Below, piece after piece: positions 54,604 to 63,656 of a stretch of DNA of 64,000 nucleotides; the first letter of the stretch is position 1, and each line of letters opens with the position of its first letter. This stretch comes from Porcipelethomonas sp. (GTDB taxonomy: Bacteria > Bacillota > Clostridia > Oscillospirales > Ruminococcaceae), in contig JBJEQV010000022.1 of assembly GCA_051881915.1 (NCBI GenBank), forward strand, positions 1,338 through 65,337, in the 5' to 3' direction. Both the position numbers and the translations under genes were made by a program. Below the pieces are notes generated by a model that was not told the origin of the DNA, searched no databases, and worked only from the letters and a program-made list of their open reading frames with translations.

Positions 54604-55344
54604 ATGATCATTATGAAATTAAGAAAATTTATAAGTGTAATTGCATCTATGGCCATTCTGAGTTCACTGCCTGTATGCGGCGGATTTTCTGTGAGTGCTG
54701 AACAGCCTGAAACAAGAGCATATTCTCTTTCCGAGCTTATGGAAATGACAGATGAAGAATTTCTTTCACTGGGAACACCCGAATGGACGTATTCATATTA
54801 CAAATTCATGAATGCCGAATACCTGTACAACACATTAAGCGGATATGAAGGTAGATTTAATATGCCGAATGGAGGGCTGATAGAATTTAAATATCAGGCT
54901 AATCTGACCGAAGATAAAATAGCAGCCCTTCTGGGAGATACAGTTAAATACAGTGTCACAAGCCCAATATATCCGCCGGATTCAGAAGGACCGTATTTTG
55001 ACGAAAACGGCTACCGATTAAATTCCACTCTGACATATTATTTTCCTGATTACACTAATTTAACTGATGAAAACCATATGGATGTTGCCAAAATTTATTA
55101 TTGTCTTTCACAGGTAATGATTTTTTACAGAACATTAACTTCAGGCAGTGATGTTGATTACACAGTCCAGGGTGACGTTAACGTTGATATGACTCTTGAT
55201 GTCTTCGACGCTATTTATATTGCCAAGGATTCAGTGGGACAAATCAGATTCACTGACTTGCAGAAAAAAATCGGCGATATGAACAACGACGGTAATACCG
55301 ACGTCTTCGACGCTATCGCTATCGCTAAAGATACTGTAAAGTAA
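54604..55344 (+). CDS. Secreted dockerin-containing protein of unknown function (paralog 1)
   Basis: Signal peptide ending SVSA; C-terminal GDVNVD..DVFDA...GDMNNDG.TDVFDA dockerin. Start may be 54613. Confidence 0.85.
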   Translation: MIIMKLRKFISVIASMAILSSLPVCGGFSVSAEQPETRAYSLSELMEMTDEEFLSLGTPEWTYSYYKFMNAEYLYNTLSGYEGRFNMPNGGLIEFKYQANLTEDKIAALLGDTVKYSVTSPIYPPDSEGPYFDENGYRLNSTLTYYFPDYTNLTDENHMDVAKIYYCLSQVMIFYRTLTSGSDVDYTVQGDVNVDMTLDVFDAIYIAKDSVGQIRFTDLQKKIGDMNNDGNTDVFDAIAIAKDTVK

Positions 55345-55347
55345 TGC
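55162..55347 (+). repeat. 186-bp exact direct repeat, copy 1 (dockerin-coding)
   Basis: Base-by-base identical to 55954-56139. Confidence 0.93.
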
Positions 55348-55407
55348 TTTCTGTTCTGCCGATTTAGAACAGCAAAGTGACTATACAAAAATATAGGAGG
55401 AATAATT

Positions 55408-56136
55408 ATGAAAAAATTTTTAAGCGTTATAACCGGCGCAATAATGGCAATTTCGGCATTTTCTACTGTAAATATAAGTGCAGAAGATACATCTGAAAAA
55501 CTTGAAGAAAAATACTATACTCTTGAACAGCTCATAGAAATGCCAGATGAAGAATTTCTGGCATTAGGCGGTTCAGTGTATTCATATTACCATCTTGATG
55601 CGGAATTCATGTATCAATATGTAGATAATTTCAAAGCAGGTTACTTTTTTATGCCGCTAAACGGACTGCAATTTTTCGGATATCAGGCAAATATTACCGA
55701 AGATAAAATAGCAGAGCTGCTGGGCGATTCAGTAAAGTACGAAGTAGAAAGTCCGATCTTTCCGTCAATTAACGGAAGCGAAGAAGGCTCCTACCTTGAT
55801 CTTACAAATTATCTGAAATATACTTTCCCTGATTATACCGGAAACACAGACGAAGATATAATGATGCGTGCTAAAATTGCGTACTGCATTACACAGGTTA
55901 TGCATTTTTATACAGAACATTACGGTACAGGTGGAACAGATGAAAAGACTACAACAGTCCAGGGTGACGTTAACGTTGATATGACTCTTGATGTCTTCGA
56001 CGCTATTTATATTGCCAAGGATTCAGTGGGACAAATCAGATTCACTGACTTGCAGAAAAAAATCGGCGATATGAACAACGACGGTAATACCGACGTCTTC
56101 GACGCTATCGCTATCGCTAAAGATACTGTAAAGTAA
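55408..56136 (+). CDS. Secreted dockerin-containing protein of unknown function (paralog 2)
   Basis: Signal peptide; shares DEEFL.LG, YQAN.TEDKIA.LLGD.VKY and FPDYT with paralog 1; identical dockerin. Confidence 0.87.
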   Translation: MKKFLSVITGAIMAISAFSTVNISAEDTSEKLEEKYYTLEQLIEMPDEEFLALGGSVYSYYHLDAEFMYQYVDNFKAGYFFMPLNGLQFFGYQANITEDKIAELLGDSVKYEVESPIFPSINGSEEGSYLDLTNYLKYTFPDYTGNTDEDIMMRAKIAYCITQVMHFYTEHYGTGGTDEKTTTVQGDVNVDMTLDVFDAIYIAKDSVGQIRFTDLQKKIGDMNNDGNTDVFDAIAIAKDTVK

Positions 56137-56139
56137 TGC
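55954..56139 (+). repeat. 186-bp exact direct repeat, copy 2
   Basis: Identical to 55162-55347. Confidence 0.93.
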
Positions 56140-56236
56140 CTTTTACCCTGCTGCTTCCGGGCGGCAGGGTGATTTTATCAGCAGACGCTGACTATTTCAT
56201 ATAAGTTTCAGTTTTTTTATTTAATGTTTCAATAAT

Positions 56237-56279
56237 AAAAACACTTTCTTTACGCCAGGTTATAAGAAAGTGTTTTTTT
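56237..56279 (+). terminator. Intrinsic terminator after the dockerin pair
   Basis: AAAAACACTTTCTT/AAGAAAGTGTTTTT followed by T run. Confidence 0.75.
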
Positions 56280-56298
56280 GTTATATAATAACAATTTT

Positions 56299-56331
56299 AT
56301 TAAGGCTTTTTCAAGGTTTCTGTGATATATT
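56299..56331 (+). promoter_or_regulatory. CiaR/OmpR-type direct repeat and extended -10 (predicted GH44 promoter)
   Basis: ATTAAG-N5-TTCAAG, then 10 bp, then TATATT preceded by TGn; no recognisable -35 element. Confidence 0.65.
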
Positions 56332-56533
56332 ATATTTCAGAGAGAAATAATTAGAAATTATTTCCTGAGGGCAATGCTTGACGATGACATTCGTCCTTAA
56401 AGTATTTAACAGTAAACTTGCTCTTGCTGTAAAATACCTGGAACCAATCACATAGGAATATCTTTTTCAGATCTGTCCTATGTGAAGAAGTTCTGAAACA
56501 ATCATCGTTCAGAAATTTAAGGGAGGATTTAAA

Positions 56534-58822
56534 ATGTATTTACAGCGCAAATTTGCTGGTATTATTGCGGGCATAGTTTCACTTGCCTGTCTTGCACAGC
56601 CCATGGCAGCTGTTACCGCAGAATCAACTGAAAGTTACAGTATGAATGTTTCTGTTAATCTTTCAGGGAAGAAAAAAGAAATAAGCCCGTATATTTATGG
56701 TATCAACCAATACGGAAACGTAAACAACTATAAGAATGTAACTGTCAATGCAGTTCGTCAGGGCGGTAACCGTTACACAGGCTACAACTGGGAAACAAAC
56801 TGGTCAAATGCCGGAGAGGACTGGATAAACAGCTCAGACACAAACATCGGGGATCTTTCAGACGGTGCAGGATATGCAGCAAGAAAGCTTTCGGAGGAAT
56901 GTTCAACATACGATATACCTTATAAAATAACAACACTCCAGATGGCAGGATATGTTGCTGCTGACAATCTTGGAGAGGTTACCGGAGCTGCTCCGTCTGA
57001 CAGATGGAATGAGGTAATTTTCCGAAAAGGTAATGATTACCTGCTTGAACCTGATCTTACAGATAATGCAGTCTATATGGACGAATATGTTAATTATCTT
57101 GTTAAAACTCTGGGTGATTCAACCACTTCAACAGGTATTCAGGGATACAGCCTTGATAATGAACCGTTTTTATGGAATGACACACATCCTTATAATCATC
57201 CTGAAGAATGTACAGCAGATGAGCTCATTGAAAAATCTGTGGAGCTTGCAAAGGTTGTAAAGGAAATTGACCCTAACGCGGAAGTTTTCGGTCCGGCACT
57301 CTGGGGAATACTTCCCTGTATTCAGGCCGGAACATCTACCACCTATACTGATGCAAAGTGGGAAAGCATAAAGAACAATTATGACTGGTATCTGGATTAC
57401 TATCTTGAAAGCATGGCAAATGCAGAAAAGACAGCGGGCACACGTCTTCTTGATGTTGTTGATGTTCATTATTACGCTCAGGACTGCTCCACTGATGACG
57501 GAAAGCTCCAGGCTGCAAGAAGCCTTTATGATGAAAGCTACGTTGAAAACAGCTGGCTTCAGCCATACTACGGAAAGTATTTTCCGCTTCTGCCAAATAT
57601 CCAGAAATCTATTGACAAGTACTATCCGGGAACAAAAATTGCAATTTCCGAATATAACCTTGCTGATATTTCAAACGAAAAAACAACCGGTAAAAATGTA
57701 ATTTCTGCTATTGCAGAAGCAGAAGCACTTGGTGCATTTGCTGAAAATGAAGTTTATTTTGCAACATACTGGGGAACACTTCCTGAATGTCCGTATGTTG
57801 AGTCTGCAATAAATCTGTATACAAACTATGACGGTGAAGGCTCCGCTTTCGGCAGCACACTTGTTGAAGCTGAAACAGAAGACCTTTCCAAATCGGCAGC
57901 CTTTGCAGCTATTGAAGGCAGTGATGATTCAAACGTTGACGTAATCCTTTCTAACAAAAACAAAACTGCTTCAGAAAATGCTGTGATAACAATTGACGGC
58001 TCATCGTCAGATTATAAGAGTGCTGTTGTTTACGCTGTATCCCAGGATCACAGCGACATACGCATCATCAATGTTCAGAATGATTTAAGCGGAAATAAAA
58101 TCAGTGTTGAACTGCCTCCTCTCTCAGTTGCACATGTAGTGATTTCTGACCAGCCCACAGATAAGACAGAATACGTTGCTCCGGATATTACACAAAAGAA
58201 AACTGTTTATAATGTAAGCGACCTTGAAAAATCTGAAGACGGCGCATATTTGATTCCTCTCGGCGACAAGGCAAACCTCAAGGAGATCATATTCGGCGTA
58301 AGCTGCTACTCAACTGAGGGTTCATCATATTACAGCGGCGGCGGCGGACTTTGCTTCTCAGGTCTCGTTCCGGCTGACGGCGGAGAGGCTGTCTGGGGAT
58401 TCAAAACTGTAAACTTCTCAAACGGTCAGAGCGAAATTGTTGTGCCGTTTGATGAATATTTTACCGATGCAAACAAGAATCAGATACAGGCATCTGTTAC
58501 CGATGACGCAGCACAGTGGCAGGCTGACTGGTGGAAATTCTCCGAAAAACAGAAGGATGGTTCAGATGTAGTTGTAAATTATTCCACAGTTACACTTGTT
58601 TATGAATACAATAATGATGAGCCCGATAATCCCGTTGAAAAAATTGCGGGAGATGTAAATGCTGACGGAACTGTCAACGTAAATGACTTTACAATGCTTT
58701 CAAAGTGGCTTCTGAATATTGATGTTGAAATTGATTCTGACCTCTCAGATGTTAATTCCGACGGCAAATATAATATCTTTGATCTGGTTGCTCTGAAAAG
58801 GATCATTATCAGTCAGTCATAA
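56534..58822 (+). CDS. GH44 endoglucanase/xyloglucanase with putative CBM (CBM76-like) and dockerin
   Basis: Signal peptide; ISPYIYG, RQGGNRYTGYNWETNWSNAG, LDNEP (acid/base), DVHYY, ISEY (nucleophile); ~135-aa beta module at ~58200-58610; dockerin GDVNADG...DVNSDG. Confidence 0.92.
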   Translation: MYLQRKFAGIIAGIVSLACLAQPMAAVTAESTESYSMNVSVNLSGKKKEISPYIYGINQYGNVNNYKNVTVNAVRQGGNRYTGYNWETNWSNAGEDWINSSDTNIGDLSDGAGYAARKLSEECSTYDIPYKITTLQMAGYVAADNLGEVTGAAPSDRWNEVIFRKGNDYLLEPDLTDNAVYMDEYVNYLVKTLGDSTTSTGIQGYSLDNEPFLWNDTHPYNHPEECTADELIEKSVELAKVVKEIDPNAEVFGPALWGILPCIQAGTSTTYTDAKWESIKNNYDWYLDYYLESMANAEKTAGTRLLDVVDVHYYAQDCSTDDGKLQAARSLYDESYVENSWLQPYYGKYFPLLPNIQKSIDKYYPGTKIAISEYNLADISNEKTTGKNVISAIAEAEALGAFAENEVYFATYWGTLPECPYVESAINLYTNYDGEGSAFGSTLVEAETEDLSKSAAFAAIEGSDDSNVDVILSNKNKTASENAVITIDGSSSDYKSAVVYAVSQDHSDIRIINVQNDLSGNKISVELPPLSVAHVVISDQPTDKTEYVAPDITQKKTVYNVSDLEKSEDGAYLIPLGDKANLKEIIFGVSCYSTEGSSYYSGGGGLCFSGLVPADGGEAVWGFKTVNFSNGQSEIVVPFDEYFTDANKNQIQASVTDDAAQWQADWWKFSEKQKDGSDVVVNYSTVTLVYEYNNDEPDNPVEKIAGDVNADGTVNVNDFTMLSKWLLNIDVEIDSDLSDVNSDGKYNIFDLVALKRIIISQS

Positions 58823-58846
58823 TATGTAATACCAGAATTATAAACT

Positions 58847-58877
58847 AAAAGCACGTCTGAAACAAGGCGTGCTTTTT
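58847..58877 (+). terminator. Intrinsic terminator after GH44
   Basis: AAAAGCACGTCT/AGGCGTGCTTTTT. Confidence 0.8.
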
Positions 58878-58917
58878 CTTGCGAAATATGCTATAATATA
58901 AAAAAGGATGTGATAAA

Positions 58918-59601
58918 ATGAGAATACTGATAGTTGAAGACGAAAAAGACCTTGCAATGATACTTTCTGAAACACTCACTATGGAAGGATACTATATTGA
59001 CACAGCTTTTGACGGTGAAAGCGGTCTTGACAATGCATTGTCGGGTATTTATGATCTGATAATATTAGACATAATGCTGCCCAAAATGAACGGTATTCAG
59101 GTCCTGTCCGAAATACGCAGAAATAATATCAGTATACCTGTACTTCTGCTGACAGCAAAAGCAGAAATTGAGGATAAAGTAAGCGGTCTTGATAATGGTG
59201 CTGATGACTATCTGACCAAACCTTTTAATACAAAAGAACTTCTTGCAAGAATACGCGCTTTATCAAGACGAAAAGATAAAACTCTTATTGATGATAACAT
59301 TAAATTTGCGGATATCGTACTTAACAGATCAACACATGAAATGCATAAAAACGAACAGAAAATAAAGCTTTCAAAAAAAGAGTATGATATCATTGAGCTT
59401 CTCATTTTAAACTATGGCAAAGTTATTTCAAAAGAAAATCTTGTCATGAAAATATGGGGATACGATACCGATATTGAATACAACTCAATTGAAGTGTATA
59501 TTTCATTTATCAGAAAAAAACTTAATGCTGTAAATTCACAGATCCGTATTTCAACTGAAAGGGGTCTGGGTTACACTATAAAGGAGAATAAAAATGGATA
59601 A
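58918..59601 (+). CDS. OmpR/PhoB-family response regulator (CiaR-like)
   Basis: IVEDE, LDIMLP, LTAK, DDYLTKPF; winged HTH IWGYD...IEVYISFIRKKL...RGLGY. Confidence 0.95.
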   Translation: MRILIVEDEKDLAMILSETLTMEGYYIDTAFDGESGLDNALSGIYDLIILDIMLPKMNGIQVLSEIRRNNISIPVLLLTAKAEIEDKVSGLDNGADDYLTKPFNTKELLARIRALSRRKDKTLIDDNIKFADIVLNRSTHEMHKNEQKIKLSKKEYDIIELLILNYGKVISKENLVMKIWGYDTDIEYNSIEVYISFIRKKLNAVNSQIRISTERGLGYTIKENKNG

Positions 59602-61285
59602 TGAAATAAAACACCTCAGAAAAAAGTTCTTTCTCCTTTCATCAGCAATATCCTTTATTGTTATTTTCATTATGATGTTAACTTTAAATATTTTAATGCA
59701 GCTGTCCTATAAAAATGAACTGAATACTGCAACAGACATGGTTGCACAAACCGCTTATTCAAATGCAGCTGATATCAATTCAGAACTGATTTTACTGGAC
59801 GACACGGAAACAAACGAAAACGGCGATCATATTATACTTCGCAATCCCGGCAAAATAAAAAGTGTTACATTAAACGGTGAAATAAGCTGTACAGATGAAA
59901 ATGCTGAATGGTACTGTGCAGGAGGGGGATTGTTTTTTGAAACTTTTGACAGTCACGGCAACATGAATTATGTACACAAAGAGTATAAATTCAATCGTGA
60001 CAATACTAAAATTACAATTGATTTCACAGATGATTCTAATTTCATGTATGAGGGTAAGCCTGTTCAGACAGATATATCCCAGGTTTCCCAGGAACGTTTT
60101 TATGTTTCGGTTGTGTGGTGGGCGTCATCAAGCACAGTACAGACAATGGGTCCTGATGAGGATGTAACATTACATATCGAGAGTATTGAAATACAATATC
60201 TGGAAAACGTTTCTGCCGCTTCGTTTGAACAGTTCAATGTTATAAACCGTAATTTCAACGATATCTACCCTTCAGGCACTCCGGACACACTAAATAATTA
60301 CAGCTGCTTTTATCTGATTTCAGATAAACATAACAATCTTGTAGAAATAAACTGCGGTAACACACTGAAATCCATTTCTGATGAAAAAGCGCGTGAGATT
60401 ATTCAAAGCAATAAAAACACATATTTTATTGATGACAAAGAATACAGCCGCGCAGTTACAGACACAGATGAATTGAAAATTCATTCATTTATCTGTGACA
60501 CCAAGGCAGAACAGAGCAGTCATCTTTTACTCCTGACATCTGCATTGTCCGGCGGAGGCGTATTTATTTTGGTACTTATCCTGATCTATTTTATTTCAGG
60601 CAAAGCCGTAAAGCCCATATCGGAGAGCTATCAGAAACAGAAGGAATTTATCTCAAATGCAAGTCATGAGCTTAAAACACCGATCACAGTTATTTCTGCG
60701 TCTACTGAGCTTATGGAAAAGAAAAACGGTCCGGACAGGATCACAAAATGCATCTGTGCCCAGACTGAAAAAATGAGCAGACTTGTAAATGAAATGCTGA
60801 CTCTTACAAGACTTTCTGCTTCTGAAAAACTTCTTTGTGATTTCAGGGAATTTGACATAAGCCGGACTTTAAGCAATACTGTTTTATATTTTGAAAGCCG
60901 GCTCTTTGAAGAAAATAAACAGATCCTGACAGACATTGAAAAAAATCTGACCTTCAAGGGAAATGCTGATAAAATCGAAGAACTGGCGGGAATTTTGATT
61001 GACAACGCAATTAAATATTCCGACGAAAAGGCTGAAATCAAATTAAGGCTTTATTCAAATAAAGACAAAATAATACTCAGCTGCGAAAACCCCTGCAAAA
61101 ACTTCAATGCAGACGATATTCCGCATCTTTTCGAACGTTTTTATCGTGCTGACAAATCACATTCAGATGAAAAGGACGGCTTCGGACTGGGACTTTCCAT
61201 TGCAAAGGAAATTGTTGTTCTTCATAAAGGTACAATTAATGCGGAGTATAAAAATAATATCGTAACGTTTAATGTTGTACTTTAA
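59594..61285 (+). CDS. Sensor histidine kinase with a CBM-like extracytoplasmic domain
   Basis: Two TM helices, ASHELKTP H-box, DNAIKYS, FERFYRAD, GFGLGLSIA; overlaps the regulator stop codon. Confidence 0.93.
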   Translation: MDNEIKHLRKKFFLLSSAISFIVIFIMMLTLNILMQLSYKNELNTATDMVAQTAYSNAADINSELILLDDTETNENGDHIILRNPGKIKSVTLNGEISCTDENAEWYCAGGGLFFETFDSHGNMNYVHKEYKFNRDNTKITIDFTDDSNFMYEGKPVQTDISQVSQERFYVSVVWWASSSTVQTMGPDEDVTLHIESIEIQYLENVSAASFEQFNVINRNFNDIYPSGTPDTLNNYSCFYLISDKHNNLVEINCGNTLKSISDEKAREIIQSNKNTYFIDDKEYSRAVTDTDELKIHSFICDTKAEQSSHLLLLTSALSGGGVFILVLILIYFISGKAVKPISESYQKQKEFISNASHELKTPITVISASTELMEKKNGPDRITKCICAQTEKMSRLVNEMLTLTRLSASEKLLCDFREFDISRTLSNTVLYFESRLFEENKQILTDIEKNLTFKGNADKIEELAGILIDNAIKYSDEKAEIKLRLYSNKDKIILSCENPCKNFNADDIPHLFERFYRADKSHSDEKDGFGLGLSIAKEIVVLHKGTINAEYKNNIVTFNVVL

Positions 61286-61460
61286 TATGCTTTTTATTAA
61301 GCTGCCAGTATGCAGAAATAATACTGATTCATTATAAATCATACTGCACGGCAGAAACAAACGCCCTTATTTCAAATAAATATGTAATATTGACAGAATT
61401 TAATAATTATTATATAATCATTAAAGATAATTATTTTAATGATTATACGGAGGAAAAGGT

Positions 61461-63656
61461 ATGGATGAAAATGTAAGTCAATTGAATCCCGATTATGTAA
61501 AATGGCGTAAAGTCCTGCTGCAAATGAATATTGTTATGGCTTTTTCGGTATTTGTACTTGAACTGATCATTTATCTTGTACTGAGATTCTCGGATCTCAT
61601 TTTTGAGTCACAGACAGAATATTTTTTAAGATATCTTATTTTCCCTGCAATAGGAAATGCTGTCGCTATTTTTATCAATGCTTTTATTTTCCTTAAATGT
61701 CCGAAAAACAGTAAAATACAGAATTATTCTCCGATTTTGTCACTTATAATACTCTGTACCGTTGTATCAGCAACACACTATGTTTTTTCAAATACTCTTA
61801 CGATTTTCTGCGTCCCGATTCTGACTTCTATTATTTTCGGGGATAAGATGCTGAGCCTGATATCAACAATATCAAGCTGTATATGTATCATGTTTTCTCT
61901 TATATGGAGATATGTTTCGCGTTACGGATCTGAAGACGTTTATCTTGTCCCTGAGGGTATGATTTCTATCGGCATAATAGTTCTTACCGGATTTCTGGCG
62001 CACATGATCATAACTCTCATGAATGAGCAGAATAAAAAGCTAATAAAAGCAACTATAAGCGCAAAGGACGCACAGCACCAGGCACTCATCGCCAATAATG
62101 CCAAAAGTAATTTCCTTGCAAACATGTCCCACGAAATCAGGACCCCTATTAATGCGGTAATAGGCATGAATGAAATGATACTGCGCGAATCAGACAACGA
62201 AGAAATAAGGGAATACGCTCAGCATGCACATTCAGCCGGCACTTCACTTTTATCAATAATAAATGATGTCCTGGACATTTCCAAAATAGAACTCGGAAAA
62301 ATAGAAATAACAAATTATGAATATGATATTTCTTCTTTAATAAGTGAAAGCTTCAATATGGTTTCCGGAAGAATATATAACAAGAATCTTGATGCCCAGG
62401 TAAATTGTGACCCGACAATCCCGTGCAAGCTTATGGGTGACGAAGCTCATATAAGAGAGATCACCGTAAACTTATTGACCAATGCTGCCAAATACACCGA
62501 TAAAGGCAATATAACTTTTTCAATAGGCGGCGAAACAATTTCAGATGAATTTCACCTAATAATTTCTGTTAAAGATACAGGAATAGGTATCTCTGATGAG
62601 AATCAGAAAAAATTATTTGAGAACTTCCAGCGTTTTGATTTAAAACACAACCGCAATATCGAGGGGACCGGTCTTGGGCTTGCGATCACAAAAAAACTGG
62701 TTGACCTTATGAACGGAAATATAACTGTCCGAAGTGAGCTCGGCAGGGGCTCGGAATTTATCGTTAAAATACCTCAGACAATAGTGGATCCCTCACCTGT
62801 CGGAAAAGTCAGCTGCAATGTCCAGCCGGATCATAAAAAGGATTACTACAAGCAGAAGTTCGAAGCGCCTGACGCACATATTCTTGTGGTTGACGATCTT
62901 GCAATAAATTTAAAGATTGTTATCAATTTACTCAAACAGACAAAAATTAAAATTGATACTGCCGAGAGCGGAAAAAAGTGCCTCGAAATGATAAAAGAGC
63001 AGGAATACAATATTATTTTTATGGATCATATGATGCCTGAAATGGATGGCATTGAAACGCTCCGCGAAATGAAAAATACTGCTGATTCCAAAAATAAACA
63101 TACACCTGTTATAATGCTGACCGCCAACGCACTTTCCGGAGTAAAAGAAAAATATTCAAGCGTCGGGTTCGATGATTATCTTTCAAAGCCTGTTGATGGA
63201 AGCATGCTTGAAGAAATGATCATAAAATACCTGCCTGATGACCTTGTCACTCAGAAGGTATCCGGCGAAAACGAGATATCTCAAAATCATCGGAAAAAGC
63301 TCTCAGATATAACAGATATCCTGCCGCAGATCGATCTGGCACTCGGGCTTAAATACTGTGCTGACAATGAAGAGTTTTATATTGAAATTTTAAGAAATTA
63401 TATCAGCAATAACCGCTGTAACACGCTTGAAAATGCATATAGAACAAATGACTTTGACGAGTACTGCCTGAATATACACTCCCTTAAAAGCACATCATTG
63501 ACGCTCGGATTAACCGAACTCTCAGAAATGGCAGAGCGCTCAGAAAAAGCATTAAAAAGCGGAGATCCGGATTTTGCAAGACAAAACCATACTCCCCTTA
63601 TGAATATGTATAAGGATATTCTTGAAAAGCTTACTGAATTTGCAGACTCTTTATAA
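61461..63656 (+). CDS. Hybrid histidine kinase (multi-TM, HisKA, HATPase, REC, HPt)
   Basis: [24 protein letters not shown]...FMDHMMP...[10 protein letters not shown]. Confidence 0.93.

Follow-up and report, generated by a model that had tools for sequence, protein, structure and literature searches.

The GH44 gene in this stretch of DNA would be controlled by the two-component system encoded directly behind it. The direct repeat in the gene's promoter would bind the phosphorylated neighbouring regulator and activate GH44, and a copy of the enzyme's own appended module, carried by the kinase, would supply the glucan signal. We give this reading a probability of about 0.68. A circuit made of a CBM-bearing kinase, an adjacent OmpR-type regulator, the repeat and GH44 had been put forward in the first-pass annotation, and comparative sequence together with predicted structure now supports it by inference, through conservation of the site, its co-occurrence with the regulator clade, paralogue-specific box variants and homology between the kinase insert and the enzyme module. 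The whole is likely a polysaccharide-sensing histidine kinase circuit. Its parts lie in the window, by which we mean the whole 64,000-nt stretch analysed, as follows (all on the + strand):

56299..56319, +: direct-repeat activator box TTAAG-N6-TCAAG with 11-bp period and conserved 3' flank GTTT (sequence, conservation)
56323..56331, +: extended -10 TG-a-TATATT, 10 bp past the repeat, with the TG at 56323-56324 (sequence)
56402..56437, +: 5'-leader hairpin with a variable, covarying stem and a near-invariant apical GTAAACTTGCTCTTGC at 56412-56427 (covariation)
56534..58822, +: secreted GH44 endoglucanase/xyloglucanase-family enzyme with beta-sandwich module and dockerin, 762 aa (Pfam PF12891, E 1e-63, and PF00404)
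58178..58618, +: module appended to GH44, residues 549-695, a predicted CBM (all-beta model, pLDDT 94.9)
58847..58878, +: intrinsic-terminator-like hairpin and T-run after GH44 (-17.1 kcal/mol for 58845-58885)
58889..58897, +: extended -10 TGCTATAAT of the regulator-kinase pair, no repeat upstream (sequence)
58918..59601, +: OmpR/PhoB-family response regulator with Asp51 and a CiaR-like recognition helix at 59485-59523 (Pfam PF00072 and PF00486)
59594..61285, +: two-TM sensor histidine kinase with His358 and an extracellular PhoQ-like PDC domain (Pfam HisKA/HATPase_c, hydropathy, model)
59771..60202, +: CBM-like beta-sandwich inserted in the sensor, about residues 60-203 (hhalign, fold matches)

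The enzyme has the NEP Glu210 and Glu373, which we take to be its catalytic residues. Receiver and winged-helix domains with a phospho-Asp on one side, and a HisKA/HATPase kinase with two TM segments and a phospho-His on the other, make the adjacent genes an OmpR/PhoB two-component pair; against NCBIfam, the regulator had no match at the cut-off among the best 25 shown. Judged by eye, a similar hairpin and T-run stands ahead of the regulator in orthologous loci and TGnTATAAT precedes most orthologous regulators, in agreement with the arrangement in the window, and this supports the earlier proposal that the pair has its own extended -10 after the terminator. With regard to autoregulation, no box was found ahead of the regulator in loci with the enzyme upstream, the exceptions being the enzyme-less L039 and L033 and the divergent L043. 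Further upstream in the window, 54604-56136 encodes two tandem secreted proteins of 242-246 aa with near-identical C-terminal dockerin-like ends and no confident Pfam family. Downstream, a hybrid histidine kinase (HisKA-HATPase-receiver-Hpt) at 61461-63656 has its own consensus sigma-70 promoter (61390-61418) and is not syntenic in orthologous loci.

At the GH44 promoter the half-sites ATTAAG (56299-56304) and TTCAAG (56310-56315) are separated by the spacer GCTTT, and 10 bp separate the second from TATATT (56326-56331). The coordinates first given for the repeat and for the TG-extended -10 were all exact on rechecking, and the sequence bears out the claimed 11-bp period and position 10 bp upstream of the -10. 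Transcription is predicted to start at about 56337-56339; an alternative, weak -35/-10 pair can be found at 56308-56336. The adjacent response regulator is predicted to bind the repeat at 56299..56319.

This geometry invites comparison with streptococcal CiaR. As passages of PMC3091779 describe it, the CiaR consensus is NTTAAG-N5-TTTAAG with the third T, second A and final G invariable, the repeat of CiaR-activated promoters lies 10 bp upstream of the -10, and the recognition helix reads VVEVYVSK[VI]RKKL. The window's system resembles CiaRH as presented there in having an OmpR-type regulator, a related helix and an 11-bp-period repeat that ends 10 bp before the -10 (PMC3091779). However, C stands at the third T of the second half-site, with A and G kept, and the helix (S)IEVYISFIRKKL (residues 190-202), compared as SIEVYISFIRKKL, is identical to the CiaR helix VVEVYVSKVRKKL printed in PMC3091779 at 8 of 13 positions. 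Also unlike CiaRH as described in those passages, the spacer and 3' flank are conserved and the kinase carries a CBM-like insert; and the regulon of the GH44-type box, unlike that of CiaR, appears to be a single enzyme gene. Calling the helix CiaR-like was therefore right as to relationship, with 8 of 13 residues shared, but it is not the conserved streptococcal helix and it is common to four paralogues. The name CiaR box did not hold: the second half is TTCAAG rather than TTTAAG, and the canonical TTTAAG-N5-TTTAAG sites of the genome form a separate Cthe_2159/VTC/DUF4956 regulon, so that identity was rejected for the GH44 site. Judged by its sequence, the GH44 repeat is a CiaR-like activator site, not a CiaR box.

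To assess how far the repeat stands out, we scanned the 2.24-Mb genome for TYAAG-N6-TYAAG-N10-TAnnnT, which occurs four times, always in promoter-like DNA outside long ORFs. Looser repeat patterns were not enriched (10 observed against 7-17 in shuffles), so the case rests on conservation and not on rarity of the bare motif. A matrix was then made from 18 sites of other genomes with the window's genome held out; the regular expression behind the training sites demanded the AAG cores, the spacing and the TG, and the presence of TG and TA..T in 18/18 of them is by requirement. Both elements are also present in 3/3 held-out GH44 sites, and the C of the second half-site (TTCAAG) is found at 17 of 18 orthologous sites. 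The window site has the top matrix score in its genome (39.4 bits), the next being 17.0 (a paralogous GH5 promoter) and 16.7 (within a gene), and three block-shuffled genomes yielded zero matrix sites of at least 12 bits.

The first-pass annotation had made its proposal depend on the repeat being kept in orthologous promoters, and it is kept: in 9/9 GH44-regulator-kinase loci from two genera, the window included, and ahead of 12 of the 14 genus GH44 genes with upstream DNA (15 genomes have a GH44). Besides the ribosome-binding site, the box is the sole block that aligns across all nine upstream regions, the remainder being unalignable. The 12 genus sites score 37-47 bits, and three of them lie outside the training set; the two box-less genes (G007 and G012) encode enzymes of about 50% identity. 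Three further GH44 promoters, retrieved via an unrelated leader motif, all have the box. The GH44 of L099 is without it, and in that genome the sensor profile matches the enzyme module only. A pattern for the GH44-type box gave 15 matches in 14 of 22 genus genomes and 0 in a reversed control; it was designed with knowledge of 10 of the 15 (nine training sites and the window site). As the genomes and loci compared are related, none of these counts are independent trials. Rows L050 (a duplicate of L033) and L087 and L088 (of L048 and L047) were removed; L049, four short-contig kinase matches and L109 come without upstream DNA, and L051-L056 were set aside, the kinase core being all that matches. 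We conclude that the repeat is more than chance and is a conserved regulatory site.

A scan for the repeat before other CAZyme genes, also suggested earlier, brought up a boxed paralogous GH5. This gene, on C105, is absent from the list of 47 dockerin-like ORFs, and only three of those 47 have even a generic repeat upstream, which indicates a local circuit rather than a cellulosome regulon; a cellulosome-wide regulon was accordingly rejected.

Which regulator reads the box? Four regulators with nearly the same helix are encoded in the genome, on contigs C22, C105, C68 and C45, with 59-66% identity. Adjacency alone is therefore no proof of the regulator's identity, and since the helix is shared, helix similarity alone cannot identify it either. 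The distribution of boxes across the genus is more informative. The box is missing in seven of the eight genomes that have no kinase at least 55% identical to that of the window, and in the eighth, G002, which is 64% complete, GH44 stands at the end of a contig. Only one CiaR-like regulator (83% identical, the next 41%) is encoded in G018 (99% complete), along with one GH44-type box, at GH44; neither a C45 orthologue nor a canonical CiaR box was found in that genome. G004 (99% complete) likewise keeps the GH44 box without a C45 orthologue or canonical box. In G010 the kinase is present, and its variant box with a TAAAG first half, which escapes the pattern, was found by a matrix-type scan. The boxed GH44 and the regulator pair of G015 are on different contigs, showing that adjacency is not constant. 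Taken with the paralogous boxes described next, this comparison makes it very probable that the neighbouring regulator reads the GH44 box.

The paralogous systems have boxes of their own and serve as an internal control. The C105 locus runs box, GH5, regulator, kinase, and its box is ATAAG-AAACCT-TTAAG in 2/2 loci of the clade. L038 also contains a GH5, which adjoins a C22-clade regulator and kinase (by FastTree, with weak support of 0.65 for the regulator's exact sister) and carries a C22-type box. Set against the C105-type GH5s, the L038 GH5 suggests that the box variant tracks the regulator and not the enzyme. In the C68 clade the helix has Asp for Glu and the pair is convergent to a GH11-CBM-dockerin-deacetylase gene; a C68-type box, TCAAT-N6-TCAAT-N10-TAnAAT, precedes the xylanase in 4/4 loci with upstream DNA and occurs in exactly 3 of 22 genus genomes, those with the C68 kinase type. 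The TCAAT-N6-TCAAT box of the GH11 gene lies in L005:8250-8320, equal to G000 C68:41278-41310, minus strand. In other genera (L092-L094) a TCAAG box faces GH11 or GH44 genes divergent from the pair. L043 has TCAAT first half-sites yet a Glu-helix regulator, which weakens a strict code of Glu/G versus Asp/T. In the same locus (L043:1990-2270) GH5 and regulator diverge, each with its own TCAAT-N6-TCAAG box and with an imperfect inverted duplication between them, and the box on the regulator's side suggests autoregulation there.

Several loci depart from this layout. L033 and L039 still have a box ahead of the regulator but lack an enzyme gene in the interval. At L033 (G007 C5:46370-47154) some 750 bp separate box and regulator, with neither an ORF of 100 codons nor a GH44 remnant nor an Rfam match; a non-coding RNA may be transcribed from this box, or the box may be left over from a lost enzyme gene. 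L038 and L034 have sister regulator-kinase pairs and a common rare TCAAG-C-TTT flank with different enzymes (GH5 and GH44), which suggests enzyme cassette exchange within a fixed promoter-regulator frame. At L045:6490-8247 a fragmented GH5 is directly followed by a truncated kinase and the regulator is missing, an apparent deletion of a C105-type locus in G001.

Elsewhere in the genome are three perfect CiaR-type boxes; a Cthe_2159-dockerin gene and a VTC-DUF4956 operon flank two of these. Canonical TTTAAG-N5-TTTAAG-N10-TAnnnT sites lie at G000 C93:7118-7319 (L001) and C60:17062 (L002), with a near-match at C14:14923. Of 22 genus genomes, 19 have the canonical pattern, and its presence agrees with that of a C45-type regulator in 9 of 10 genomes that are at least 90% complete (G016 is the exception). 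The canonical boxes are thus probably the regulon of the CBM-less C45 regulator. The C45 kinase has a long acidic, Pro-rich outer region. In G010 the C45-type regulator match has an internal TAA (L237, G010 C1:291307-291984), and canonical boxes persist. No long ORF is found close downstream of the C60 site on its own strand. Streptococcal CiaR boxes drive small RNAs, and by analogy the C60 box could do the same.

We then considered the sensor. The outer region of the kinase comprises 270 residues, modelled with pLDDT 90 from 20 sequences, and is predicted to be a PhoQ-like PDC domain interrupted by a beta-sandwich. The predicted PDC domain matches 1yax with Z 7.1 and rmsd 3.5 over 97 aligned residues. 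The insert aligns with the module appended to GH44 over 131 columns (hhalign 99.2%, E 3.6e-19), and by this profile comparison the two are homologous. Structural matches of the insert include CBM36 (Z 8.3, rmsd 2.8, 104 aligned), CBM86 (8.3, 2.6, 104) and R. flavefaciens CBM78 (Z 7.7, rmsd 4.1, 128 aligned); with Z of 7.7-8.3 near the search background these are middling, and the sequence homology is the stronger evidence. Foldseek placed R. flavefaciens CBMs first (E 2e-3), at the top CBM78 (4V17/4V18) and the Cel9A module 4D3L, presumably a CBM79. Trp106, Trp175, Trp176 and a GGG motif are invariant in 20/20 sensors, and a WW and two glycines that match the sensors are invariant in 9/9 enzyme modules, so that the predicted models combine the beta-sandwich fold and conserved aromatics usual for CBMs. 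For the enzyme module itself viral jelly rolls head the Foldseek list, and CBMs appear at ranks 13, 39 and 50. A profile of GH44-type modules found no significant match among PDB sequences; a profile that included GH5 modules matched 4V17, a CBM78 (PMC9026390), with E 4e-5.

The GH44-type module is found on GH5 and GH26 enzymes as well. Of the enzyme modules, that of a CBM35-GH26 mannanase-like dockerin protein (L095:7820-10237, minus) comes nearest to the kinase inserts (E 1.6e-20 with the sensor profile), which may hint at where the insert came from. CBM76, on an R. flavefaciens GH44 (AAA95959), is listed as a beta-glucan/xyloglucan binder (PMC10992016), as is CBM78 (PMC10992016, PMC9026390), and CBM76 has been used as a xyloglucan-specific probe (bioRxiv 10.64898/2026.09.16.752152). 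Like CBM76, the window's module stands between GH44 and dockerin in an enzyme of a Ruminococcus relative, a likeness of position (PMC10992016). Of the other 21 genus genomes, 15 have the kinase. Its sensor profile matched 14 of 400 genomes of the family, two of them via enzyme modules only, and 0 of 400 sampled across the order, and no lead in the ESM Atlas reached 0.9; by these searches the kinase family has a narrow range. Where the flank is long enough, most kinases with the insert adjoin a glycanase gene or a box (L035, L037, L041 and L096 do not). As the same insert family occurs in kinases beside xylanases, the ligand cannot be read from the insert. Even so, the homology and the invariant residues make glycan sensing by the insert reasonably probable.

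Three other explanations deserve weight. The repeat might be a repressor site, or a mere upstream element of a constitutive extended -10 promoter: with its TG extension this promoter could work without a -35, and the weak -35/-10 pair offers it another route. But the geometry matches that of CiaR-activated promoters (PMC3091779, in the passages cited), the repeat disappears where no member of the regulator clade was found, its sequence shifts with the clade, and we consider this explanation very improbable. Nor does it seem at all probable, if a little less far-fetched, that the main reader of the box is a different CiaR-like paralogue (C105, or the CBM-less C45), its neighbour being there by coincidence. 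Such a role would fit the close similarity of the four paralogues and their almost identical recognition helices, with which cross-binding to TTAAG and TCAAG half-sites is plausible. It sits badly with G018 and G004, which keep the GH44 box but have neither C45 orthologue nor canonical box, with the lack of any other CiaR-like regulator in G018, and with box variants that differ by clade. Some cross-talk among the paralogues of the window's genome may nevertheless occur.

A further possibility leaves the box and the pair in place and concerns the signal. CiaH- and PhoQ-type kinases have been proposed to sense a small molecule, ion or envelope stress. The PDC domain might do likewise here, the insert being an anchor or a relic. 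The PhoQ-like fold of the host domain is compatible with this, as is the related CBM-less paralogue that probably controls the polyphosphate/Cthe_2159 regulon; moreover, homologous inserts occur at both glucanase and xylanase loci, and ligand binding is a prediction. Against it stand the three Trp and GGG kept in every sensor, whose WW and GG match the enzyme modules, and the glycanase or box beside most insert-bearing kinases with enough flank, and we regard it as unlikely. We therefore retain the circuit in which the neighbouring regulator activates GH44 through the box and the kinase's module copy supplies the glucan signal.

In that circuit, expression from their own extended -10 would keep regulator and kinase at a basal level. 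The insert would bind a polymer or fragment of beta-glucan or xyloglucan type, and this would shift the PDC domain and the membrane helices, upon which His358 would phosphorylate Asp51. A head-to-tail regulator dimer on the two half-sites would then replace the -35 and recruit sigma-A polymerase. The leader hairpin may stabilise the GH44 mRNA or add to its control, and most transcripts would end at the terminator before the regulator. Since the sensor carries a copy of the enzyme's predicted sugar-binding module, the cell would sense the fibre directly.

To characterize the leader hairpin, we aligned 13 copies chosen by loop match: 84% of the cells pair, 11 of 15 pairs show a compensatory change, the covariation score was reached by 0 of 500 shuffles, and slid registers are 34-52% paired. 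A U-G wobble in 10 of the 13 copies suggests a sense-strand RNA. There are two copies of the exact core in the genome, before GH44 and before the boxed GH5 (L004:6526-6569), and nine in 22 genus genomes, always in GH44 or boxed GH5 promoters; a recognisable core is found in 14 of 24 loci scanned and so is not universal. The GH5 leaders of L004 and L040 share an extra element around GTCTTTCGGAAGGGAGG, upstream of the hairpin, and something similar occurs in the non-coding stretch of L033. A metagenome scan for the exact loop returned 83 stretches; among the 80 listed, three are GH44 promoters with the box and the others look like chance or tandem repeats. The 15 Rfam matches within 56100-56600 were weak, falling far short of the gathering score and leaving 56402-56437 uncovered, and a known Rfam cis-element was rejected on this ground. 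No convincing antisense partner for the loop was found in non-coding DNA. Most likely, to go by this pattern of conservation, the hairpin stabilises the transcript or binds a protein via its loop. For the cip-cel operon, PMC10311766 describes stem-loops in untranslated regions with selective RNA processing and stabilisation. The hairpin, like these, is in an untranslated region of a cellulosomal transcript; unlike them, it lies in the 5' leader, and its loop is near-invariant while its stem varies and is often rich in A and U (PMC10311766).

Known fibre-responsive systems offer partial parallels, here compared through passages of the papers cited. In C. thermocellum RsgI/SigI, a membrane protein with an extracellular CBM is proposed to sense biomass and to turn on glycosidase genes (PMC3990059). 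A CBM as outer sensor, as in that Clostridium thermocellum system, is what we propose here, but RsgI is an anti-sigma factor, whereas the window's proteins would use His-Asp phosphotransfer, with a module that is inserted within a PDC domain and is homologous to that on the regulated enzyme (PMC3990059). A HisKA/HATPase kinase and a response regulator are present, with no anti-sigma-I domain or SigI. XydS/R, CuaDSR and Ccel_2453/2452 of R. cellulolyticum are CAZyme-controlling two-component systems (PMC3656788, PMC4780118). As with these Ruminiclostridium cellulolyticum systems, the pair adjoins an accessory CAZyme that it is proposed to induce, and as with CuaDSR a low-level constitutive regulator operon is proposed (PMC3656788, PMC4780118). 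CuaR and Ccel_2452, by contrast, are AraC-type, with soluble sugars proposed to act via a solute-binding protein, and the window's regulator is OmpR-type (PMC3656788, PMC4780118). No binding protein or ABC transporter was found beside the pair within the window.

To our knowledge, the way in which Ruminococcus-type cellulosome producers perceive insoluble plant polymers is poorly defined. A CBM-inserted histidine kinase was not found described in a literature that was largely open-access, subscription journals being mostly outside its scope, nor do the matching passages of a 2024 review (PMC10766802) mention one. We see an even chance that a Ruminococcaceae clade inserted its own glycanase CBM into a CiaH/PhoQ-like sensor and duplicated the result into insulated GH44, GH5 and GH11 circuits of one sensor and one enzyme, with a Glu-to-Asp change in the helix that turned the half-site from AAG to AAT and with the leader hairpin as a second layer. 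The control layer formed by the leader RNA would be one undescribed so far and is part of this same account, for which the odds seem to us balanced. If true, a histidine kinase that carries the module of the enzyme it regulates would be a third design, next to CBM-bearing anti-sigma factors (C. thermocellum) and soluble-sugar two-component systems (R. cellulolyticum), as the sources cited above present them. The circuit has named, testable parts, namely the sensor domain, the three tryptophans, the regulator, the box and the start site. The three paralogous boxes would be a natural specificity series for DNA recognition in the OmpR family and, possibly, orthogonal fibre-inducible switches.
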